Source of the DNA: a virus
Lineage: Duplodnaviria; Heunggongvirae; Uroviricota; Caudoviricetes
Direction: 5' to 3' (one strand)
DNA: 64,000 nucleotides
IMG/VR virus record: IMGVR_UViG_3300015615_000629
Location: 496,711-560,710 of that record
Part shown: piece after piece, positions 13,487 to 64,000 of the stretch
Layout of the letters: every line of letters begins with the position of its first letter
Numbering within the stretch: position 1 is the first letter of the stretch
Program-made: the position numbers and the translations under genes
The notes under the pieces: generated by a model
Database searches by the model: none
What the model saw: the letters and a program-made list of their open reading frames with translations, nothing else
What the model was told of the DNA's origin: nothing

Positions 13487-13982
13487 GGTTAGATGTATAA
13501 TTAAAAAAGTCCATATCCCCATCTTTAACTGAATTAATCGGCATCCAGTCGTGTCCTGTCCAAATTTGAATTGCATTTGGAGGGATAATGCGATCCGTGT
13601 AAAAATCCCCATCTGGGTTTTTGCGATCCATTTCGGGCTCGGCAAATGGATTTTTTGCAAACTCATTGTTATGCATGCCAAATGCATCATAATTCCAACG
13701 GTTTCCACGATTGTTAAAACGAAACCGAAGAACAACAGAAGCTTTGTCTAGAGATTTGCTCGACCCTGATCGTGGCATATCGTGTAGCCACCATATTGCA
13801 TTAGAAAGATTATTGGTAAAAAATAAGCCCTTTGCACTATGCACTTTTATATTGTTATCATACGTATAATTAGGCTTATAATTTTTAATCAACCCTTTAG
13901 AGCGTATAGAAGGCATCAATCTGTAATACGTTACATGGTATACCCAATTATCAGATGACTCCAACCAAATCCTAAATTCCAT
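13464..13982 (-). CDS. putative ADP-ribosyltransferase-fold protein
   Basis: VYHVT...SIRSKGL and GLFFT, the YHxT...I...GL / (G)xFxT start typical of ART/DarT/KptA-like folds. Confidence 0.5.
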   Translation of the reverse strand: MEFRIWLESSDNWVYHVTYYRLMPSIRSKGLIKNYKPNYTYDNNIKVHSAKGLFFTNNLSNAIWWLHDMPRSGSSKSLDKASVVLRFRFNNRGNRWNYDAFGMHNNEFAKNPFAEPEMDRKNPDGDFYTDRIIPPNAIQIWTGHDWMPINSVKDGDMDFFNYTSNLIANHTP

Positions 13983-31645: not shown

Positions 31646-32134
31646 ATGAAGTTTAAAGAATGGTATTTAAACGAGGCACCATCTACATATCAGAGGTATA
31701 CTCCGTACCGAATGAATCCATATGCGTTGCCCAATATTAATAGATTTGGGCGTCGAGGCGATGAACCATCGCTTTTAGACAAAGCGGTTTCTGGAACTGC
31801 TCACGGAATAGGACAGAATTTCTTAAAAGCACTTTATCCAAAAGGCGTTGGAATGCCACAATATACGCAAACTTTGGGCTTTAGTTTGCGTCCAGAAGAA
31901 CATGAGGATAGAATAGAATATGTAGTAACTGCTCCTTTAGATGGTAATGCTAAGGACAAACAAGCCGAATTACTACAGCATGTGGCTCAAGATCAAGCCA
32001 CTTATTTGCAACAACAAGGAATCGATACTAGATTTGGGAAAATACATTATACTAATGTTGTTGGAAACGAGATAACTGTTCATATTGTCTTCCCGAAAGG
32101 GAACGCCGCTCACATTTTGGGGAATCGCCGATGA
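31646..32134 (+). CDS. hypothetical protein with capsid-targeting-like N-terminus
   Basis: Starts MKFKEWYLNEA; GAGG RBS. Confidence 0.6.
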   Translation: MKFKEWYLNEAPSTYQRYTPYRMNPYALPNINRFGRRGDEPSLLDKAVSGTAHGIGQNFLKALYPKGVGMPQYTQTLGFSLRPEEHEDRIEYVVTAPLDGNAKDKQAELLQHVAQDQATYLQQQGIDTRFGKIHYTNVVGNEITVHIVFPKGNAAHILGNRR

Positions 32135-33630
32135 AAAGTTTTTCAGACTTTATTTCAATAAGAGAAGAGAATGAATCCAATAAAGATTGGAGAAAACATT
32201 ACGTCCAATTAGAAAAAGGCTTTGTTCCACCTCCTAAAATGCGTCCAATTATCGAAGCTTTCTTAAAAAGCGGCGATATTGAACTTATGCATGATACTAC
32301 TAAGCCCGTTAATATGCCTAAGAAATCCTTGTTCTTAGTAGGCGGGCCGGTTAGAGACTTTATTTTAGGTAAGTCTATAAAGGACTATGACTTAGCAACA
32401 AATGCTTCGCCTGAACAAGTTGCCCATATTTTAACTAATGCTGGCTTTTCCATGACTCCAGACAGGAGCGGAAAAGAAGGTGCTCCACTTAATTTAACAT
32501 TTAAACCAGAAGCATCTCGACCAGGAGATAAGAAAACTTGGTTTGTAAAAGGCCGAGATAGTAGTAAAGAAAGAAAAGCATTTGTTATTTCGGCTGTAGT
32601 CGATGGCGAAGAATTCGAAATTGCAACTTTTCGTAAAGACGCCAAAGTCACCGATGGAGCGGCAGAAGTGGATTTTGTCGATAATCCACACGAAGACGCA
32701 TCCAGAAGAGATTTAACGATTAATGCTCTTTATATCGAACTAACCAAACCAGATGGTGAAAACAGCAAATTGTTCGATCCAACTGGGAAAGGTTTGCACG
32801 ATGTAAAGAACAAAAAGATTCAAACCGTGGGCAGTGCCGATGAGAGATTCAATGAAGATAAATTACGTGTAATGCGTGCTATCAGGTTCCATTGCCGCTT
32901 TGGTGGCGGTGCTCAAATGGATCCGGCTATTGAAAAGGCAATCCCTAAGTTTAAGCACTTGGACGGTGTAGCCTTAGAAAGAATTAGGGATGAATTCCTA
33001 AAAGGCTTATTACACCCAGATGTTGATGCTAAATGCTATCTTTCAATATACAAAAGAACCGGATTATTGGAAAAAGTGTTTCCAGGGCTCAGATTTGATC
33101 CTGCTGGTAGTGTTCCTGCCGAATTTTCCGATAAGAAAGATAAACCGCTAGCATTGGCTTGGTTGTTACAACACAATCCAGTGGATAAAGTGGCGGAAAC
33201 CCTTGCTCCAACTAGACTTAGTAGCGGCGAAGACAAAGCGACTGGCTGGACGACTCAAGAGAGAAAAGCGATTTTATTTCTTTTGCAATTAAAAGAATTT
33301 AACGCTGATCGCCTTCCTAATTTCATGAAAATGAGAGAAGGAACAGGACTGAGCAACCAACAGATTAGGGATTGGGTAGACATGTTCAATGTGGGCAACA
33401 CGATGAGAAATCGTCGGCCTTGGTGGGCAAAGCAGGTTAGGGCATTTTCTGATCATGAGAGAACGACATCTTGGCCAGATATTCAGAAAACAGGCGGCCA
33501 TGTTTGCCCAGATTGTCGCGGAATGGGCTGTGAAAAATGCATGGGAACTGGCGAAGTTGCCCCTCATATGAGGTCTAAACTAATTGGGGACGAAGAAATA
33601 AAGAGATTCAAGCAGAAGATTGGCCAATAG
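32131..33630 (+). CDS. cca: tRNA nucleotidyltransferase (CCA-adding / poly(A) polymerase family)
   Basis: FLVGGPVRDFILG..KDYDLAT (GGxxRD, DxD), EIATFR, DASRRDLTINALY (RRD), EDKLRVMRAIRF (EDxxR). Confidence 0.9.
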   Translation: MKSFSDFISIREENESNKDWRKHYVQLEKGFVPPPKMRPIIEAFLKSGDIELMHDTTKPVNMPKKSLFLVGGPVRDFILGKSIKDYDLATNASPEQVAHILTNAGFSMTPDRSGKEGAPLNLTFKPEASRPGDKKTWFVKGRDSSKERKAFVISAVVDGEEFEIATFRKDAKVTDGAAEVDFVDNPHEDASRRDLTINALYIELTKPDGENSKLFDPTGKGLHDVKNKKIQTVGSADERFNEDKLRVMRAIRFHCRFGGGAQMDPAIEKAIPKFKHLDGVALERIRDEFLKGLLHPDVDAKCYLSIYKRTGLLEKVFPGLRFDPAGSVPAEFSDKKDKPLALAWLLQHNPVDKVAETLAPTRLSSGEDKATGWTTQERKAILFLLQLKEFNADRLPNFMKMREGTGLSNQQIRDWVDMFNVGNTMRNRRPWWAKQVRAFSDHERTTSWPDIQKTGGHVCPDCRGMGCEKCMGTGEVAPHMRSKLIGDEEIKRFKQKIGQ

Positions 33631-57940: not shown

Positions 57941-58246
57941 ATTTTCTGAAAAACCGAATTTTTTATGGAACAAAACCCCTATGTGTATGAAACAGATGAA
58001 TATCCAGAACCTTCTCAACTATTAATCTTCTTAGAATGGACCCTTTTCTATATTCTCGTTCTGGGCCTAATCATCATTTCCCCCAGAATATGGCTAAAGA
58101 TAATTAAGGATATATTGGGAATTCCTTATTAAGGGACTCCTAAGTTATTTTCTGAAAAACCGAATTTTTAGTTTTGCAACATTTATGGGACTCCAAAACC
58201 TAAAATGTGGTTTTTCAGTTTACGAGATTCTACTTTTGCAACATTT
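57941..58246. repeat. short direct repeats at the end of the plus-strand block
   Basis: ATTTTCTGAAAAACCGAATTTTT at 57941 and 58147; TTTTGCAACATTT at 58172 and 58234. Confidence 0.75.
57965..58132 (+). CDS. possible small membrane protein (about 55 aa)
   Basis: Read manually: MEQNPYVYETDEYPEPSQLLIFLEWTLFYILVLGLIIISPRIW...; end approximate. Confidence 0.35.
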   Translation: MEQNPYVYETDEYPEPSQLLIFLEWTLFYILVLGLIIISPRIWLKIIKDILGIPY

Positions 58247-58438
58247 TTAGTTTAAATCTGGGCGGGTCTGCAGTTTGGAGGGAGTTTAAAAGAAAAGGCG
58301 GCTTAGTCATGGCTCCGCCCACCCCCCATAGGAACCCCCACCCCACAGGGAATTTTATTTTAATTTTTTGATTTTTATTTCTGCAACAAATAAGGTACAG
58401 GTTAATTATACCTTATTGTTATTAGGTAGGGGTTAACC

Positions 58439-58675
58439 CTACCCTTCGTCATAGTCCTCGGGGTTCGCTTCGGCATCCTCTGCCTCGCAGGCGTCGTAAT
58501 GCTCCTGCTGGAGTACATACCGCACGAGTTCGGCCTTGCGTATGCCGAAGTACATAGCCCCTACGTTATCGTAGAGCAGGTCCAGTAGTTCCTGTCGGCT
58601 CATACGTGAGAGTTCTACCCCACGCGGCGACTTGACATCCACGGGCACAGCAACTGGTTGCAATCGGAAGTTCAT
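58439..58675 (-). CDS. small cassette ORF (78 aa)
   Basis: Motif plus AGGAGG RBS upstream. Confidence 0.65.
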   Translation of the reverse strand: MNFRLQPVAVPVDVKSPRGVELSRMSRQELLDLLYDNVGAMYFGIRKAELVRYVLQQEHYDACEAEDAEANPEDYDEG

Positions 58676-58763
58676 CGTCCTGTCCTCCTGCCCATTAAGG
58701 TACAGATAAAGGATACTATTAACTTATCTGTACCGTTACGTTATCTTATAGCCCCGTAGGGCA

Positions 58764-58922
58764 TTAGGTTGGCTGCCCCTGGGCTTTGGCAATGGCGTCC
58801 ACTGCTTTACAACTCCAATCCCACAGCAAATCGTGGTAGTAGTCCGATAGGCCAGCCCCTTTCAAGGCTTCGTCGATTGCGTTCACGCCTTCCGTCAACA
58901 CTGCCACCATATCTTCGTTCAT
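58764..58922 (-). CDS. small cassette ORF (52 aa)
   Basis: Read manually, MNEDMVAVLTEGVNAIDEALK...; motif plus GGGAG upstream. Confidence 0.55.
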   Translation of the reverse strand: MNEDMVAVLTEGVNAIDEALKGAGLSDYYHDLLWDWSCKAVDAIAKAQGQPT

Positions 58923-59041
58923 GACTGTTCTCCCTGAGTAGTCGCCCGACAGTCATTAAGGTACAGATAAAGGATACTATTAACTTATCTGTACCCTTCC
59001 GTTACTTAAAAGGAAAGGCAGGGTTGCCCCTGCCTCCCTTC

Positions 59042-59410
59042 TCAGAAGGGGATATCACCGCAATCGCAGGCAGCCTCAGCGGCTACCACGTTGACTGGTA
59101 AGCCTCGCACGCGGGCAAAGACATCGCTTCCCCCGTAAACGCCTAGCCGCTGGTTAACGGCGTCAGCGGTTTGAAGGGCAGCCTCGGGGGTAACGTAAGC
59201 ACTGTGGAAGTCCTCCCGCTCGCCCATGCAGGCATCGGTCGAGGGGCAATACATCGTGGCGACGATAACGACGACGCAGCGGCCCTTGGCCAACTCTTGG
59301 GCGATACGTGGGTCGTTCGGCTCGCGGGTCATGCACGACCAATCGAAGGCGTTTCGCAGTTCGCTTTGCGGATTGTAATCCCGTTCCTCTTGCTCTTGAA
59401 TGTTGAACAT
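59042..59410 (-). CDS. cassette ORF (122 aa)
   Basis: Motif plus GGGAG upstream; hairpin downstream. Confidence 0.65.
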   Translation of the reverse strand: MFNIQEQEERDYNPQSELRNAFDWSCMTREPNDPRIAQELAKGRCVVVIVATMYCPSTDACMGEREDFHSAYVTPEAALQTADAVNQRLGVYGGSDVFARVRGLPVNVVAAEAACDCGDIPF

Positions 59411-59544
59411 GGCTTGGCTCCCGTTTTAATCTTTCCCTTAACCCACCAATAAAGGTACAGATAAAGGTTGGGGATTAAATTAAATGCTCCGGAAGGTTTG
59501 AGTTCCCTTCCGGAGCAGGTTTGCGGAGCGAGCCGCAGGGAGGT

Positions 59545-59805
59545 TTATTCCTCGTCGCCCCCGTAGCAACCGTAGTCCTCATCGGTTCCGAAGCCGGCCG
59601 AGGCCATGCCGGTATCGAAATCGCCGTCCATGTCTTCGCCTGGAAGCATCATGTAAAACGTGGGGTCTTCGCCGTCCTCCTCCGTGTCGTTCAGTTCGAG
59701 GTCGAGTTCGGGCAATTCGAGTTCGCCATCGAATTCGCTTGTGTCGTCCCCGATTGGCCCGTCGAAGTCGAGGTCAAAGTCAAGTGAGTCATCGCGTTCG
59801 CTCAT
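59545..59805 (-). CDS. highly acidic cassette ORF (86 aa)
   Basis: Start trimmed to MSERDD behind GGGAG; 33 of 86 residues are D/E. Confidence 0.6.
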   Translation of the reverse strand: MSERDDSLDFDLDFDGPIGDDTSEFDGELELPELDLELNDTEEDGEDPTFYMMLPGEDMDGDFDTGMASAGFGTDEDYGCYGGDEE

Positions 59806-59920
59806 GTTCATCTCCCGTTGGTTGTTCCCTTGCCACAACAGATAAGGTACAGATAACAATTGAGATTAAATAAAAACTCCCCCGGAGGCCATGCCTCTAC
59901 GGGGGAGTCGGGCAGGGATT

Positions 59921-60157
59921 TCAATTTGAGTCATCGATTTCGACGCAAGCGACTGCGATTTCATAAACCATCTCTTGGGCGATTTCATCCTGCTTATCGC
60001 ACCAATCTTGGTAAGCCCAATCGGTGTGGTCGGCGAGAAGGTCCATCTCGTAATAGCGGCGGTCGAGAGCGATACCATACGCAATCTGGTCGCTGGCAGC
60101 CTCTTGCTCCTGAATGAGATTCAAGTTGAGCGAATCGCGGAGTTGATTGCGGGCCAT
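59921..60157 (-). CDS. cassette ORF (78 aa)
   Basis: Start trimmed to MARNQL behind GGGGAG; motif upstream. Confidence 0.6.
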   Translation of the reverse strand: MARNQLRDSLNLNLIQEQEAASDQIAYGIALDRRYYEMDLLADHTDWAYQDWCDKQDEIAQEMVYEIAVACVEIDDSN

Positions 60158-60207
60158 CTCTTGTCTCCCCGTTGATTGTTCCCTTGCCACAACCAATTAG
60201 GTACAGA

Positions 60208-60498
60208 TTAAATTAGGCAAAGTCTGCCATCTTCGCCGACATGGAGGTTGTCCCCTTGTCCCTTGACAACGCCGACGACTTCCATTGTGGCCTCTCCCGT
60301 GGTGGTGGCCGTAATACGGTTCAGCAAGGCATGGGCCGTGTTAGACAGGTTAATCGCCGTCCGCAGCCGTTGTTCCATGCCCTCCACATCGGGGATGCGG
60401 CTGACTTCGCCGTTGCTGTCATCAATCGAGTCAATGTAGCTCGATTCGTCGGGCGTAATGGTAATCGCCACGAGAAACGTAACTGATTCGTTGGTCAT
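60208..60498 (-). CDS. cassette ORF (96 aa)
   Basis: Motif plus AGGAGG upstream. Confidence 0.65.
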   Translation of the reverse strand: MTNESVTFLVAITITPDESSYIDSIDDSNGEVSRIPDVEGMEQRLRTAINLSNTAHALLNRITATTTGEATMEVVGVVKGQGDNLHVGEDGRLCLI

Positions 60499-60601
60499 TG
60501 TTCTGTCCTCCTGCCAGATAAGGTACAGATAACAATTGAGATTAAATAAAAACTCCCCATAGGGTAGGCCGATTAGGGCCGCCTTGGGGAGTCGCAGGGA
60601 T

Positions 60602-60733
60602 TTAACCCTGCCCGAGCGATTGCTTTACGTGCTTGCGAACGGCTCGATGGGCGAGTTTCTTACCATACGGCCGCAGATGTTTGCAGTAACCGTATGCGGC
60701 GTGAGCCTTGGTAGCGTTTGGGGTCTTTCGCAT
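60602..60733 (-). CDS. basic cassette peptide (43 aa)
   Basis: Read manually, MRKTPNATKAHAAYGYCKHLRPYGKKLAHRAVRKHVKQSLGQG; motif plus AGGAGG. Confidence 0.6.
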   Translation of the reverse strand: MRKTPNATKAHAAYGYCKHLRPYGKKLAHRAVRKHVKQSLGQG

Positions 60734-60765
60734 TGGTTGGTTCCTCCTGACCAATTAGGTACAGA

Positions 60766-61047
60766 TTAAAAATCCCCGATAACCTCCAGAACTTCGGTAG
60801 CCTTGGCCCTGATATCGCGGAACACTGAGCGAACCCATGCGACAGTGTCGTCGAGGTCGGGGGCGTTGCTGTCGAACCATGAATGGCGGCTGCCTGACAT
60901 GTCATTGACACAAGAGCGAAAGGTATGCTCCTTGCCATCCTTGAAATGAATGAACCGAATGAAGCCCATTGGCTTGGACTGGTCGGTGATACTGATGGGA
61001 AAGTGCTTCTCGATGCCTGGGTGGCGGCCGGCTTTTAACTTTGCCAT
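60766..61047 (-). CDS. cassette ORF (93 aa)
   Basis: Motif plus AAGGAG; stop codon lies inside the next motif. Confidence 0.65.
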   Translation of the reverse strand: MAKLKAGRHPGIEKHFPISITDQSKPMGFIRFIHFKDGKEHTFRSCVNDMSGSRHSWFDSNAPDLDDTVAWVRSVFRDIRAKATEVLEVIGDF

Positions 61048-61155
61048 TGTCTCATCTCCTTACCGCAATAGGTACAGATAAGGATAATTTTTAGATAAAA
61101 AAAACTCCCCTGGAGCGGCCACGAGCCGCGTCAACAGGGGAGTCGGGCAGGGATA

Positions 61156-61263
61156 TCAGTTGAGCCCGAATCGTTTGTTAAATCGGACGCTGCGGTGTTT
61201 AGCGTACCACTTACGTCGTGCTTGCCCTTTGAACCAACGTCGTTTTCGTTTTCCGTCTGGCAT
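61156..61263 (-). CDS. Arg/Lys-rich cassette peptide (35 aa)
   Basis: Read manually, MPDGKRKRRWFKGQARRKWYAKHRSVRFNKRFGLN; motif plus GGAGG. Confidence 0.6.
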   Translation of the reverse strand: MPDGKRKRRWFKGQARRKWYAKHRSVRFNKRFGLN

Positions 61264-61295
61264 GGCTTGGTCCTCCATGCCAGATTAGGTACAGA

Positions 61296-61568
61296 TTAAA
61301 AGTTTGGCATTTCCTCCAGTGTTTCCTTGACAGCCCGCATCGCGGCATGAACGCCTTGCGAATAGGCTTTTACATAGTTTTGGGCGGCTTTACGTCCGAT
61401 TGCGGTGTGAAGTTCTCCCCCTTGGTGCCAGTCGGGGTATGTCTGCACATCCGCTTTACGAAAGAAACGGTATCCTCTGGCCCCTTTACGGCCGGCACTT
61501 CCGAGCCAAACCGTATTGGTTGCGAAGCACAACCCAACTTCGCGTGCTGCTGCTTCAAGTTCTTTCAT
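61296..61568 (-). CDS. cassette ORF (90 aa)
   Basis: Start trimmed to MKELEAA behind AAGGAGG. Confidence 0.6.
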   Translation of the reverse strand: MKELEAAAREVGLCFATNTVWLGSAGRKGARGYRFFRKADVQTYPDWHQGGELHTAIGRKAAQNYVKAYSQGVHAAMRAVKETLEEMPNF

Positions 61569-61586
61569 GGTGTCCTCCTTGCCCAA

Positions 61587-61796
61587 TTAGGTACAGGTTT
61601 GCCGGCCGCGTGCTTCGCTGCGGTAGGCTTCGTCGAATATCGCTTGCAATTCCCTTCGGTCGGCTTCGGGTTGCGAGCGTCGATACTCGCCAAACCAGCG
61701 AATTTCTTCGGTGCTACGGCTGTTATCACGTTGCTTTACCGCACGGCCAGCACGCTCACCAGAGGCGGTTGCGGTTTTAATTTGTTCGGTAGTCAT
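61587..61796 (-). CDS. cassette ORF (69 aa)
   Basis: Start trimmed to MTTEQI behind AGGAGG. Confidence 0.6.
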   Translation of the reverse strand: MTTEQIKTATASGERAGRAVKQRDNSRSTEEIRWFGEYRRSQPEADRRELQAIFDEAYRSEARGRQTCT

Positions 61797-61833
61797 TTGT
61801 TCTGTCCTCCTGCCCAATTAGGTACAGATTAAG

Positions 61834-61912
61834 TCCGTCGGGCAGGAATCGAACCTGCACAGCATTGCGGGTGGGTTACGGCCACTTGGGCTCGCCATTG
61901 CCCAGCCGACGG
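61834..61912 (-). tRNA. tRNA-Tyr(GUA)-like gene, non-canonical, no encoded CCA
   Basis: CCGTCGG/CCGACGG acceptor stem plus A73; D stem GGGC/GCCC with GG; anticodon loop CC-GTA-AC; T arm GCAGG-TTCGATT-CCTGC. Confidence 0.75.
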
Positions 61913-62010
61913 TTATTACTTACATCTTTTAAGGTACAGATAAGGTTTTTATTTAGATAAAAAAACTCCCCCGGAGCATTGCTCTACGGGGGAGTCGGGC
62001 AGGGAGATTG

Positions 62011-62193
62011 TTACGCCGCCTCGCGGTAACTCTTGGTGGCGTGGATTGTCTTACCCGTTTCCTGGTCGATTAGCCGCACGGCCACGGCTTCCCCGAGGGT
62101 CTTGGCCTCCTGGCGTGCTTGGGCTTCGCGGTCGGCGTCAAACGTGGTGGTGTCCATGCCCTTGGCTTGCAGAATGAAACGCTCACTAAACAT
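62011..62193 (-). CDS. cassette ORF (60 aa)
   Basis: Start trimmed to MFSERF behind GGGAG. Confidence 0.55.
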   Translation of the reverse strand: MFSERFILQAKGMDTTTFDADREAQARQEAKTLGEAVAVRLIDQETGKTIHATKSYREAA

Positions 62194-62257
62194 GACTTTT
62201 CTCCCTTTTCGTTTTGCCCTTTGCCCCTTGATACCAATTAAGGTACAGATAAGGTTT

Positions 62258-62437
62258 CTATTCGGTGGTGCCGATTTCGATAGCACGGATTAGTGCTTGT
62301 TCCCTCTTGCCAAGGATAAGAGCATCCTTCATGGTTTCCTGCCCTGCGATTAGCATGGTGTCTAGGGCCTTAGCAACCTCCTCGCGAGTCGCCTTATTAG
62401 GAGCGACAACAGTGACGACTAATCTTATGGTTTTCAT
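62258..62437 (-). CDS. cassette ORF (59 aa)
   Basis: Read manually, MKTIRLVVTVVAPNKATREEVAKAL...; no motif directly upstream. Confidence 0.45.
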   Translation of the reverse strand: MKTIRLVVTVVAPNKATREEVAKALDTMLIAGQETMKDALILGKREQALIRAIEIGTTE

Positions 62438-62544
62438 TTGACGCTCTCATTTGCGTTTTAAGCGATTGGATTAAGATATGGTGTCTTTTTACCTTTTCTT
62501 AATTGAAACGCTTGTAATGCACGCTGCGGGCTTTTAATGGGGTA

Positions 62545-62856
62545 TTAGCACCAGCAGAGTTCGTGGCCGCCGAGTTGTTTGACCTTTTCGCTGATTTGGT
62601 TAAGTTTGTTGGCAACAGCGGATTTATTCCAGCCCATTGCCTGAAATTCTTTCACCAATTGGTCCAGTTCGGCGTCGAACTGTGGCACGACCAGATCAGC
62701 GGAAAAGTTGAATAGCTGGTGACTTCCCAGATATTTACACAACCCTTTACCACCGTGAAGTTTAGCGAGCCATGCTTCACCCTTAACGAGCATGGCAACG
62801 ATAATTTCACGCTGACGGTCGTTCTGGGCGTCTATTGCTGCGAAGCGGTGTGTCAT
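62545..62856 (-). CDS. cassette ORF (103 aa)
   Basis: Start trimmed to MTHRFA behind AAGGAGG; two motif copies upstream. Confidence 0.6.
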   Translation of the reverse strand: MTHRFAAIDAQNDRQREIIVAMLVKGEAWLAKLHGGKGLCKYLGSHQLFNFSADLVVPQFDAELDQLVKEFQAMGWNKSAVANKLNQISEKVKQLGGHELCWC

Positions 62857-62959
62857 TTGGTCCTCCTTGGCCAATTAGGTACAGATAAGGTTTCTGTTAA
62901 GGTACAGATAAAATAAAAAAGCCCTAGAGGTGGTGGTCCCTCTAGGGCTTGCAGGAGGC

Positions 62960-63229
62960 TTAGGCAGCCTTACGGGGCTTGGACTGGCTGAGGAACTTGC
63001 TGGCTTGTCGGCGGGTGGCGGGCTTGCCGGCGAGCCAATTGCGGAAAGGCACGGCGAGCGGGTGGTCTTTGATGGTTCCCTCGGCGGTCACAAGGTCAGC
63101 GGGGGCAGCGGCTTCGCGGAGGGAGATGCCTTTCTGACTTTGCGTGGGAACGTAGTCAAACTTACGCAAGGCAGGCCGGAGGTTGTTGGCCGGAATCGGG
63201 GGGAGCGGACGAATCACAACGGCTGACAT
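62960..63229 (-). CDS. basic cassette ORF (89 aa)
   Basis: Motif plus AGGAG upstream. Confidence 0.55.
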   Translation of the reverse strand: MSAVVIRPLPPIPANNLRPALRKFDYVPTQSQKGISLREAAAPADLVTAEGTIKDHPLAVPFRNWLAGKPATRRQASKFLSQSKPRKAA

Positions 63230-63277
63230 GTTTTCTCTCCTGCTTGTGGGTTACTTGAACGTTGAATTAGGTACAGA

Positions 63278-63457
63278 TTAGAGTTTCAGCGGCGTGTCGC
63301 TGACATAAGTTATTTGCATGACTCGACTTGCGTAAACGGTCGCCTCGTGAGCAACGGCAACAAAGGCGGTTGCTTGAGTTTTGGCAGCGACTTTATGTTC
63401 GACGCTTCCCCCGTCACGAAAAGCAAGTCGGAAAGTGTATTCGTTGTAGTCTCCCAT
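63278..63457 (-). CDS. cassette ORF (59 aa)
   Basis: Read manually, MGDYNEYTFRLAFRDGGSVEHKV...; stop codon is part of the next motif. Confidence 0.5.
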   Translation of the reverse strand: MGDYNEYTFRLAFRDGGSVEHKVAAKTQATAFVAVAHEATVYASRVMQITYVSDTPLKL

Positions 63458-63550
63458 GCTGTTTAAGGTACAGATAAAGTGGTTTTATAAATAAAAAATG
63501 CCTCGGAGGTGGTGGTCCCTCCGAGGCGGCTAGCGGCCCTTGGGCCGTGT

Positions 63551-63865
63551 CTATCCTTGATGTTCGATTTGCAGCGGGGGCAGCACGCGGACAGTGACGG
63601 GGAGCGGGGTTGGAGCGGGGAATACGCCCCTGCAGAACGCTGACCCTCTTGGAATATGGAGTTGGGTTCCGCCCACATCCATAAAAATGTAGTTTCGGCT
63701 GTCGCGGTGCTTGAAATGCACGTACCCTTCGGGGGTGACTTGCATCAGCATAAACTCACCAGCATCGGCGAAACGGTGAGCCCCATCGCCGCCATCGACT
63801 TGATGGCTTTCGAGCAAGGCCGCGAAATCTTTGAAGTGCTCGTCAACTTCGACTTGAGTAATCAT
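63551..63865 (-). CDS. cassette ORF (104 aa)
   Basis: Start trimmed to MITQVEV behind GGGAG; motif upstream. Confidence 0.6.
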   Translation of the reverse strand: MITQVEVDEHFKDFAALLESHQVDGGDGAHRFADAGEFMLMQVTPEGYVHFKHRDSRNYIFMDVGGTQLHIPRGSAFCRGVFPAPTPLPVTVRVLPPLQIEHQG

Positions 63866-63904
63866 TGGTTTCTCCCTTTCCTTTCTGCCCAATTAGGTAC
63901 AGAT

Positions 63905-64000
63905 TTAACAGCCGCAATCGAGCGTGCCGTTATTGGTTACGGCGTTGGCGACGGTAGCCCAAGCGAACTCGAACACTGGCCCCGTGTGGAGGGTGACGGG
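63905..64000 (-). CDS. partial cassette ORF running off the window edge
   Basis: Open frame ending ...TNNGTLDCGC-stop, with the stop inside motif copy 19. Confidence 0.4.
   Translation of the reverse strand, partial: PVTLHTGPVFEFAWATVANAVTNNGTLDCGC

Follow-up and report, generated by a model that had tools for sequence, protein, structure and literature searches.

A C1:G72 tRNA-Tyr gene of a megaphage belongs to an anticodon-loop family recurring in phages and bacterial tRNA arrays

We analysed a 64-kb stretch of DNA (hereafter the window) that covers positions 496,711-560,710 of a 572,167-bp phage record of IMG/VR, circularly assembled with a 141-bp terminal overlap and a GC content of 39.6% (the megaphage), and found that positions 61834-61912 of the window are a real tRNA-Tyr gene. 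A prediction made earlier from the letters of the window (the original prediction) had held that this tRNA-Tyr departs from the bacterial consensus, and it does so at the 1:72 pair, at positions 8, 33 and 38, in the D arm and in the variable arm. Comparison with phage and bacterial homologues indicates that these odd letters are family traits, belonging to tRNA-Tyr genes with the anticodon loop CCGUAAC. On balance we favour the reading that the gene encodes a spare elongator tRNA-Tyr, working and made early, of a mobile-element type found repeatedly among phages and bacterial tRNA arrays.

Results

A complete cloverleaf near the detection limit of standard models

The original prediction had proposed gene-finder scores as a check, and these came out in its favour: ARAGORN called a single tRNA in the window, tRNA-Tyr(gta), at 61833-61912 on the - strand, and the RF00005 model scored it at 38.2 bits (genome 558544-558622, E 3.8e-7 per genome), above the cut-off of 29. 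When the window was run through cmscan at gathering thresholds no family was listed and the gene was not reported, and an E-value scan of the window gave, besides unrelated families, only a sub-threshold tRNA-Sec alignment of 25 bits. This places the tRNA-Tyr near the detection limit of the standard models. Its minimum-energy fold lacks the D and anticodon arms (z = -1.47), an outcome that is common with unmodified tRNA sequences and carries no information.

Direct reading of the strand gives a structurally sound, full cloverleaf. The acceptor stem is CCGUCGG/CCGACGG, that is, C1:G72, and is followed by A73; positions 8 and 9 are C8 and U9; and the D arm, GGGC-AAUGGCGA-GCCC, has a 4-bp stem and an 8-nt loop. 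After A26 comes an anticodon stem, AGUGG/CCACC, with an A27·C43 mismatch, closed by the loop CCGUAAC (C32, C33, GUA, A37, C38). The variable region has 11 nt and could form at most a 2-bp mini-helix, the T arm is canonical (GCAGG-UUCGAUU-CCUGC) and CCA is not encoded. Every feature listed by the original prediction (C1:G72, A73, C8, C33, A27·C43, the 11-nt variable region and the missing CCA) was thus recovered. The core nucleotides are intact as well: A14, G18, G19, A21, the A15/U48 Levitt pair, G53:C61, U54-U55-C56 and the UUCGA T-loop. Compared with a canonical bacterial class II tRNA-Tyr, the phage gene has the GUA anticodon and A73, but C1:G72 stands in place of G1:C72, and U8, U33 and the loop CUGUAAA are replaced by C8, C33 and C38. 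The class II marks (a variable arm of at least 13 nt with a stem of at least 3 bp, and a large D loop on a D stem of 3 bp) are also absent.

A family of CCGUAAC-loop tRNA-Tyr genes

To define the family, IMG/VR and then the GTDB genomes were scanned for the loop together with the T-loop, and a structural parse kept 49 distinct sequences. A73 is present in all 49 and CCA follows it in 44; the first pair is G:C in 41, C:G in 7 and C·C in 1; U is the commonest letter at position 8 (27 genes, against 11 with A, 10 with C and 1 with G); and the variable region has 11-16 nt in all but one. Changes on both sides of a pair (double compensatory) were seen at 14 of the 17 acceptor, anticodon and T-stem positions. 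Stem cells are paired in 98.6% of cases, a share that falls to about 51% on sliding the partner strand by 1 or 2 positions and to 71% on column shuffling; the pattern fixed the loop and T-loop and paired stems were filtered for, so that the 98.6% is inflated, although the compensatory changes are not. The megaphage tRNA-Tyr fits the class in its loop closed by G30:C40 and G31:C39, its A73 and its variable region of 11-16 nt, and is phage-borne, the class being one of phage genes or extra array copies.

The bacterial members sit in tRNA arrays from Acidobacteriaceae, Planctomycetota, Acidimicrobiales, Mogibacterium and other lineages. The fetched loci hold 9-24 tRNAs each, with the CCGUAAC-loop gene as the sole Tyr member, so that it serves as the Tyr decoder of the array. 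In the genomes where our pattern found both copies (7/7), a housekeeping tRNA-Tyr with a CUGUAAA (U33) loop lies elsewhere, and in the four housekeeping copies that were aligned G1:C72 and U8 go together with a class II D arm. C33 is therefore a mark of the additional copy of mobile type, not of the host lineage. The original prediction had named a host lineage whose own tRNA-Tyr normally carries these features as grounds for abandoning its claim; for the lineages that could be checked, this explanation is rejected. We also observed C33 in array tRNAs of many specificities (roughly 28/111 in six arrays, L159, L171, L175, L157, L183 and L016), and a literature search on C33/U33 in phage tRNAs returned nothing relevant. 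One CCGUAAC-loop gene, from a Christensenellales metagenome-assembled genome (MAG; L190:6887-6974), has a C1·C72 mismatch and could be an intermediate between G:C and C:G.

The nearest homologue lies in a probably planctomycete array

The nearest homologue of the megaphage tRNA-Tyr in our metagenome scan is at L624:6163-6243 on contig Ga0185299_10000317, and a second near relative is L625. Counted on the alignment, the L624 gene is about 85% identical to the megaphage gene outside the variable region. All three have an identical D arm, C8-U9, C33, an identical T stem and the 27·43 mismatch, which is C·A in L624 and L625 and A·C in the megaphage; since its closest homologues have it too, the mismatch is a lineage trait and not decay. 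The acceptor stem of the L624 gene differs at the first pair only, G1:C72 against C1:G72. Given an acceptor that is otherwise the same, the inversion in the megaphage is a recent, coordinated two-base change that kept the pair.

The L624 gene is part of an array of 12 tRNAs (L624:5442-7110) on a 143-kb contig, flanked by ordinary chromosomal genes including one for a DUF1570 protein. The RarA protein of this contig is 63% identical to a homologue from a Planctomycetota MAG, against 45-58% and much lower bit scores for the other genomes tested, and on this comparison the contig is probably planctomycete. The promoter-like motif of the phage (see below) was not found in L624, so that the locus is not a relative of the phage. 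The megaphage tRNA-Tyr was probably acquired from, or is common to, a Planctomycetota-like array pool, and the position of its nearest homologue lends weak support to Planctomycetota as hosts of the megaphage.

A related huge-phage fragment of 254 kb (G012), with 42% identity in a 1027-aa protein, has a pair of tRNA-Tyr genes near its Leu and Phe genes. C8-U9 and G1:C72 are found in both, and their loops are CUGUAAC and CUGUAAA, so that C8 is normal in this phage lineage. The second of them (L268:1466-1552; CUGUAAA) lies 1.1 kb from the called tRNA-Tyr and is missed by ARAGORN; counting it, the lineage seems to have a habit of two Tyr genes in each genome.

Deviations are frequent in phage tRNA-Tyr genes

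We then scanned IMG/VR by loop type (Table 1; all counts are among the matches listed). Among these matches (loci L388-L622), a letter other than U stands at position 8 in about 31% of the canonical-loop genes and about 53% of the C38-loop genes, and C38, which breaks the AAA motif of MiaA, is very common in phage tRNA-Tyr (101 of 120 were true genes). The C1:G72 examples among them are well formed, with a variable arm and A73, and have unrelated stem sequences, so the flip arose many times. A separate scan of IMG/VR with the 15-nt anticodon arm gave 27 matches, 25 of them chance matches in coding DNA and 2 real tRNA-Tyr genes.

Table 1. Phage tRNA-Tyr genes in IMG/VR by anticodon loop, among the matches listed
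Loop	Cloverleaf tRNA-Tyr (loci)	C1:G72 (distinct)	Position 8
CUGUAAA (canonical)	106/116	9/104	U 72, C 18, G 7, A 7
CUGUAAC	101/120	4/93	U 44, A 22, C 17, G 10
CCGUAAA	15/119	1/14	U 7, A 4, C 3
CCGUAAC	22/116	2/17	U 9, A 6, C 2

The loop lacks the determinants of two modifications

The CCGUAAC loop contains neither U33G34U35, the TGT determinant for queuosine, nor A36A37A38, the MiaA determinant for i6A (determinants documented in PMC6140457 and PMC5699536). With both missing, the tRNA-Tyr is expected to be made without queuosine and without i6A/ms2i6A, unlike a host tRNA with a CUGUAAA loop. On the same reading of the loop, evasion of nucleases by this tRNA is plausible.

The megaphage encodes a bacterial-type TyrRS and a full tRNA set

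The original prediction had called the tRNA archaeal/eukaryotic-type and advised a search of the genome for a tyrosyl-tRNA synthetase (TyrRS). The search yields one, at genome 322,976-324,205 on the - strand (409 aa), which is the sole class-Ic synthetase (PF00579) of the megaphage. It is of the bacterial TyrS type with an S4-like C-terminal domain (TIGR00234, 396 bits), its best solved relative is the Bacillus TyrRS 2ts1 (E 6e-128), and against the archaeal model NF006330 it reaches 28 bits where the cut-off is 220. K151, W196 and R207 of the Bacillus TyrRS are conserved in it, and E152 and K208 are replaced by D and R; no relatives of it were found in viral contigs. As the phage has a bacterial-type TyrRS only, the idea of an archaeal-type synthetase was rejected.

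In the literature, the orientation of the 1:72 pair separates the bacterial from the archaeal/eukaryal tyrosine systems and is the accepted basis of TyrRS orthogonality (PMC1934993), and bacterial C1-G72 tRNA-Tyr has otherwise been reported only in Candidate Phyla Radiation (CPR) phyla, with an archaeal-type TyrRS (PMC5370408). The validated determinants of bacterial tRNA-Tyr are A73, G34 and U35 (Table 1 of PMC9976931). Furthermore, the human mitochondrial TyrRS, a bacterial-type enzyme with an S4-like domain, charges both 1:72 orientations as far as the citing papers report it (Bonnefond et al. 2005, through PMC9976931 and PMC5370408), and is thus a precedent, although from an organellar system.

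Genomes that carry C1:G72 genes of this kind point the same way. Five bacterial genomes with a C1:G72 array tRNA-Tyr each encode two class-Ic synthetases, TyrRS and TrpRS, and no extra TyrRS. A complete phage of 70.6 kb with terminal repeats (G018, IMGVR_UViG_3300040944_000171) has a tRNA-Tyr with C1:G72, C8 and C33 at 13643-13705, two tRNA hits in all and no TyrRS; the sequence of its tRNA-Tyr also occurs in a Dormibacteria MAG contig, and with RF00005 it scores 23.7 bits, below the gathering score. In these genomes the C1:G72 tRNA-Tyr must depend on an ordinary bacterial TyrRS, and from this pattern of gene content bacterial-type TyrRS evidently tolerates C1:G72. The archaeal/eukaryotic-type label is hence not supported: besides the type of the phage synthetase and the lack of extra enzymes in the five array genomes and of any TyrRS in the 70.6-kb phage, C1:G72, C8 and C33 each recur in variable-arm tRNA-Tyr of phages and bacterial arrays, and the closest homologue has G1:C72.

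ARAGORN found 40 tRNAs in the megaphage, all on the - strand, covering 20 amino acids and including CUA and UCA suppressors. None of the 40 genes encodes CCA, so a tRNA-Tyr without CCA is normal here. From its domains, a PolyA_pol-family nucleotidyltransferase in the window (Table 2) is a likely maturation partner for these genes. A second and very different tRNA-Tyr-like gene lies at about 299,932-300,018 (-) of the genome, in a Leu/Phe tRNA block, with G1:C72, A73, U33, the loop CUGUAGA and a long extra arm. C33 is also found in the megaphage tRNA-Pro(GGG) and tRNA-Val(GAC) (genome 114857-115003).

The gene heads a small unit in a GC-rich block

The original prediction had placed the tRNA in its own cassette behind a motif, and the order of elements agrees with it: the terminator of the upstream gene comes first, then a promoter-like motif, then the tRNA-Tyr (Table 2), which begins 20 nt past CTGTACC. 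No terminator was found by the terminator scan between the tRNA-Tyr and the next gene. With a terminator upstream, its own motif and no terminator downstream, the tRNA-Tyr heads a small unit with 2 or 3 open reading frames (ORFs). Assuming a start 10 nt past CTGTACC, as the apparently leaderless genes would have it, transcription would begin at 61923 and leave an 11-nt leader for RNase P.

Table 2. Features of the window around the tRNA-Tyr gene and its candidate maturation enzyme
Feature	Position	Strand	Basis
tRNA-Tyr(GUA) gene, 79 nt up to A73	61834..61912	-	ARAGORN, RF00005, direct strand reading
Intrinsic terminator of upstream 60-aa gene	61965..61977	-	Terminator scan
Promoter-like motif CCTTATCTGTACCTTAA upstream of tRNA-Tyr	61929..61945	-	Genome-wide motif map
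Second promoter-like motif copy, directly after A73, for next gene	61817..61832	-	Motif map
69-aa ORF, probably co-transcribed with tRNA-Tyr, no known family	61587..61796	-	ORF list; no PHROGs/Pfam match
90-aa ORF, next unit member, no known family	61296..61568	-	ORF list; PHROGs, Pfam
Next terminator-like site, likely end of tRNA-headed unit	61104..61116	-	Terminator scan
Window part of ~23-kb GC-rich block of tiny genes, each behind motif	58400..64000	-	Composition, motif map
PolyA_pol-family nucleotidyltransferase (CCA-adding type)	32131..33630	+	PF01743 96.7 bits, PF12627 27.5 bits

The megaphage genome has 65 copies of the 8-mer CTGTACCT on its - strand and 3 on its + strand, often exactly 9 nt before an ATG, and the copies are concentrated from genome 555.1 kb to the end and then on to about 50 kb. 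The GC-rich block spans about 23 kb, from genome 555.1 kb through the end to about 6 kb, has 50-55% GC against 39.6% for the genome and is packed with very small - strand genes. It is a probable early region, with the tRNA-Tyr inside it. At 66% GC this tRNA gene is the highest of the 40 phage tRNAs, whose mean is 53%. Eight flanking small ORFs matched no family in PHROGs or Pfam, and blastn of window positions 58000-64000 against 50,697 GenBank phage records gave no match.

Within the block TAC makes up 59% of Tyr codons, against 31% elsewhere in the megaphage. We considered this richness as evidence tied to an unmodified G34 and rejected it as not specific, as it belongs to a general shift in GC at third codon positions that extends to the codons of His, Asn, Asp and Phe; it may be that early genes suit a host tRNA pool richer in GC, with later genes drawing on the phage's own tRNAs. 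The same block, outside the window, holds a second solitary tRNA-like gene (genome 1122-1191, -; RF00005 41.8 bits), which ARAGORN calls only at a relaxed threshold and which has a 6-nt anticodon loop, GGAUAU, and the T-loop UUAAAUU. A CTGTACC motif copy stands directly behind it, as with the tRNA-Tyr.

Discussion

A spare elongator tRNA-Tyr and the points that weigh against it

In the reading that we favour, the tRNA-Tyr would be transcribed from its own copy of the phage motif in the probably early GC-rich block. RNase P would cut the 11-nt leader, the 3' trailer would be trimmed, and CCA would be added by the phage or a host nucleotidyltransferase. A bacterial-type TyrRS, of the host or of the phage, would charge the tRNA through A73, G34 and U35 and tolerate the inverted first pair, and the charged tRNA would decode UAC and UAU. 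Its supply would then be independent of host modification and probably also of anticodon nucleases that read the canonical loop.

Several points weigh against this account, in addition to the inflated paired fraction noted above. In the five related phage fragments searched, no tRNA-Tyr orthologue was found in the same place: four are without any tRNA-Tyr match, and the two genes of G012, which have U33, lie in a Leu/Phe cluster. A variable region of 11 nt is found in only 2 of the 49 CCGUAAC-loop genes and could make the S4-like domain of TyrRS bind less tightly. Colicin E5 takes any pyrimidine at position 33, so that C33 alone need not protect. The megaphage itself is uncultured. In the literature, bacterial TyrRS prefers G1:C72 (PMC1934993, PMC9976931). 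Finally, loss of Q34 together with i6A37 in tRNA-Tyr reportedly leads to frameshifting and protein aggregation (PMC13326639), which means that an unmodified loop has a cost.

Alternative explanations

One alternative, which we regard as possible but rather improbable, is a plain supplementary tRNA-Tyr that tops up codon usage, in which C1:G72, C8 and C33 are neutral drift tolerated over one infection cycle. Such deviations are indeed common in phage tRNA-Tyr (among the matches listed, position 8 is not U in 31% and 53%, and C1:G72 occurs in 4-9%), C33 is present in about a quarter of the other tRNAs of the examined arrays as well as in the megaphage tRNA-Pro(GGG) and tRNA-Val(GAC), and the megaphage has nearly a full set of tRNAs, for 20 amino acids. 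Yet the change from G:C to C:G takes two transversions through a mismatch and recurs in many unrelated sequences, which is hard to see as pure drift. The megaphage already has another tRNA-Tyr, with G1:C72 and U33, in its Leu/Phe block, and of its tRNA-Tyr copies only the C1:G72 one is found in the probable early block, with a promoter-like motif of its own in front. Furthermore, a 70-kb phage with two tRNA hits retains this Tyr type.

The gene could instead be a decaying or non-functional relic, brought in with GC-rich foreign DNA and near a promoter motif by chance. This we consider unlikely. By Infernal score it ranks near the bottom of the megaphage tRNAs, and it was missed by cmscan at the gathering threshold, but low model scores are typical of the whole class, the copy of the 70-kb phage reaching 23.7 bits. 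The 27·43 mismatch and the shortened variable arm would suit decay, although the mismatch is also present in the two closest homologues, the 1:72 change is compensatory and all nucleotides of tertiary interactions and Tyr identity are intact. A GC content above that of every other megaphage tRNA (66%, the mean of the 40 being 53%) does suggest a foreign origin, and the minimum-energy fold is not a cloverleaf; on the other side, terminator, promoter motif and gene are arranged as they are for the neighbouring genes.

It is also improbable, in our judgement, that the tRNA forms a private (orthogonal) pair with the phage TyrRS, such that the phage enzyme prefers or accepts C1:G72, the host enzyme refuses it and a tyrosine channel survives an attack on host TyrRS or tRNA-Tyr. 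The presence in one megaphage of a full-length TyrRS and of two very different tRNA-Tyr genes would invite this view, as would a 1:72 flip that the megaphage copy has and its closest homologue has not, at the pair that is the accepted basis of TyrRS orthogonality (PMC1934993). However, the phage enzyme looks like an ordinary TyrS-type TyrRS that keeps the acceptor-contact residues of the Bacillus enzyme, its gene is 235 kb away and not co-located with the tRNA-Tyr, and a complete phage and five bacterial genomes have tRNAs of this kind without an extra TyrRS.

Lastly, a decoy for a nuclease or toxin directed at tRNA-Tyr, or a tyrosine donor to a non-ribosomal reaction, would agree with a C33 expected to weaken the U-turn and with early, separate expression, but is very improbable: a decoy should mimic the host target, and this tRNA departs from housekeeping tRNA-Tyr just where nucleases read it (at the loop, at position 8 and at the 1:72 pair), in bacterial arrays this loop type provides the one Tyr tRNA of an ordinary decoding set, and no tRNA-dependent transferase gene was recognised beside it by PHROGs and Pfam on the flanking ORFs.

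Relation to known systems

The gene falls within a known kind, that of phage and array tRNAs that differ from host tRNAs. Bacterial tRNA arrays (PMC8421152, PMC4758250, PMC5966550) come in addition to the canonical housekeeping tRNAs, and the L624 copy is the nearest to ours, with the same CCGUAAC loop, C8-U9, D arm, 27·43 mismatch and A73. It differs in having G1:C72, a variable region of 13 nt and array neighbours, whereas the megaphage copy has C1:G72 and 11 nt and is solitary behind a phage motif, far from the tRNA clusters of the phage. PMC8421152, on tRNA arrays, contains no description of these deviations.

A second comparison is with T5-like phages, which overcome the PtuAB of retron-Eco7 (Ec78) by means of a strongly promoted tRNA-Tyr (Azam et al. 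2024, PMC11555353). As in T5 and SP15, the megaphage tRNA-Tyr is phage-encoded, has its own promoter (here a promoter-like motif) and is proposed to sustain tyrosine decoding after depletion of host tRNA-Tyr; the replacement role that the original prediction had suggested is in line with published cases such as that of T5. Another anti-defence tRNA of T5 is its tRNA-Lys, which acts against PARIS. The rescue by T5 was shown to depend on promoter strength and not on a proven resistant sequence, as a strongly expressed E. coli tRNA-Tyr rescues too (PMC11555353), and no C33, C8 or C1:G72 has been reported for the T5 tRNA-Tyr. Mycobacteriophage tRNAs carry anticodon-loop mutations predicted to escape host tRNases and, as here, show systematic differences between their loops and the host's (van den Berg et al. 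2023, PMC10264068). That work mentions neither Tyr nor position 33, and the megaphage tRNA in addition loses the TGT and MiaA determinants and is changed at position 8 and at 1:72.

The C1-G72 tRNA-Tyr of CPR bacteria is, like that of the megaphage, of bacterial lineage and often has a variable arm (Mukai et al. 2017, PMC5370408), but is accompanied by an archaeal/eukaryal-type TyrRS, while the megaphage has the bacterial type only and the array genomes have no extra enzyme. Archaeal and eukaryal tRNA-Tyr resemble the megaphage's in C1:G72, A73 and the GUA anticodon; their variable loop of 4-5 nt, U33, U8 and archaeal-type TyrRS have no counterpart in the megaphage, with its 11 nt, C33 and C8. 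In Methanopyrus, C8 is edited to U8. As far as our literature searches show, neither the CCGUAAC loop class, nor the frequent non-U8, nor the repeated 1:72 inversions in the absence of an archaeal TyrRS have been described.

Implications

Phage tRNAs are now viewed as tools of counter-defence, and the sequence rules that set them apart from host tRNAs are known for few cases. The family described here is a widespread tRNA-Tyr loop type of phages and arrays from which the determinants of both modifications marking the tRNA-Tyr anticodon loop are missing. Moreover, the first pair, which the literature treats as a barrier between the bacterial and the archaeal/eukaryal systems, has flipped repeatedly in mobile tRNA-Tyr, in genomes where only a bacterial-type TyrRS is present. 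As the standard models under-score the CCGUAAC-type class (23.7 bits in the 70-kb phage), such genes are probably under-annotated.

We tentatively put forward, as a wider idea that we hold with little confidence, that there is a class of "stealth" tRNA-Tyr common to phages and arrays, with a loop devoid of the queuosine and i6A motifs, a free position 8 and repeated C1:G72 flips, charged by ordinary bacterial TyrRS, and that the copy of the megaphage is made right after infection to outlast a defence against canonical tRNA-Tyr. If this were true, the textbook rule of G1:C72 for bacteria and C1:G72 for archaea and eukaryotes would fail for mobile tRNA-Tyr. Charging of these tRNAs by bacterial TyrRS, if it takes place, would bear on the rules of tRNA identity and on the orthogonality of C1:G72 that is assumed in bacterial genetic-code expansion.

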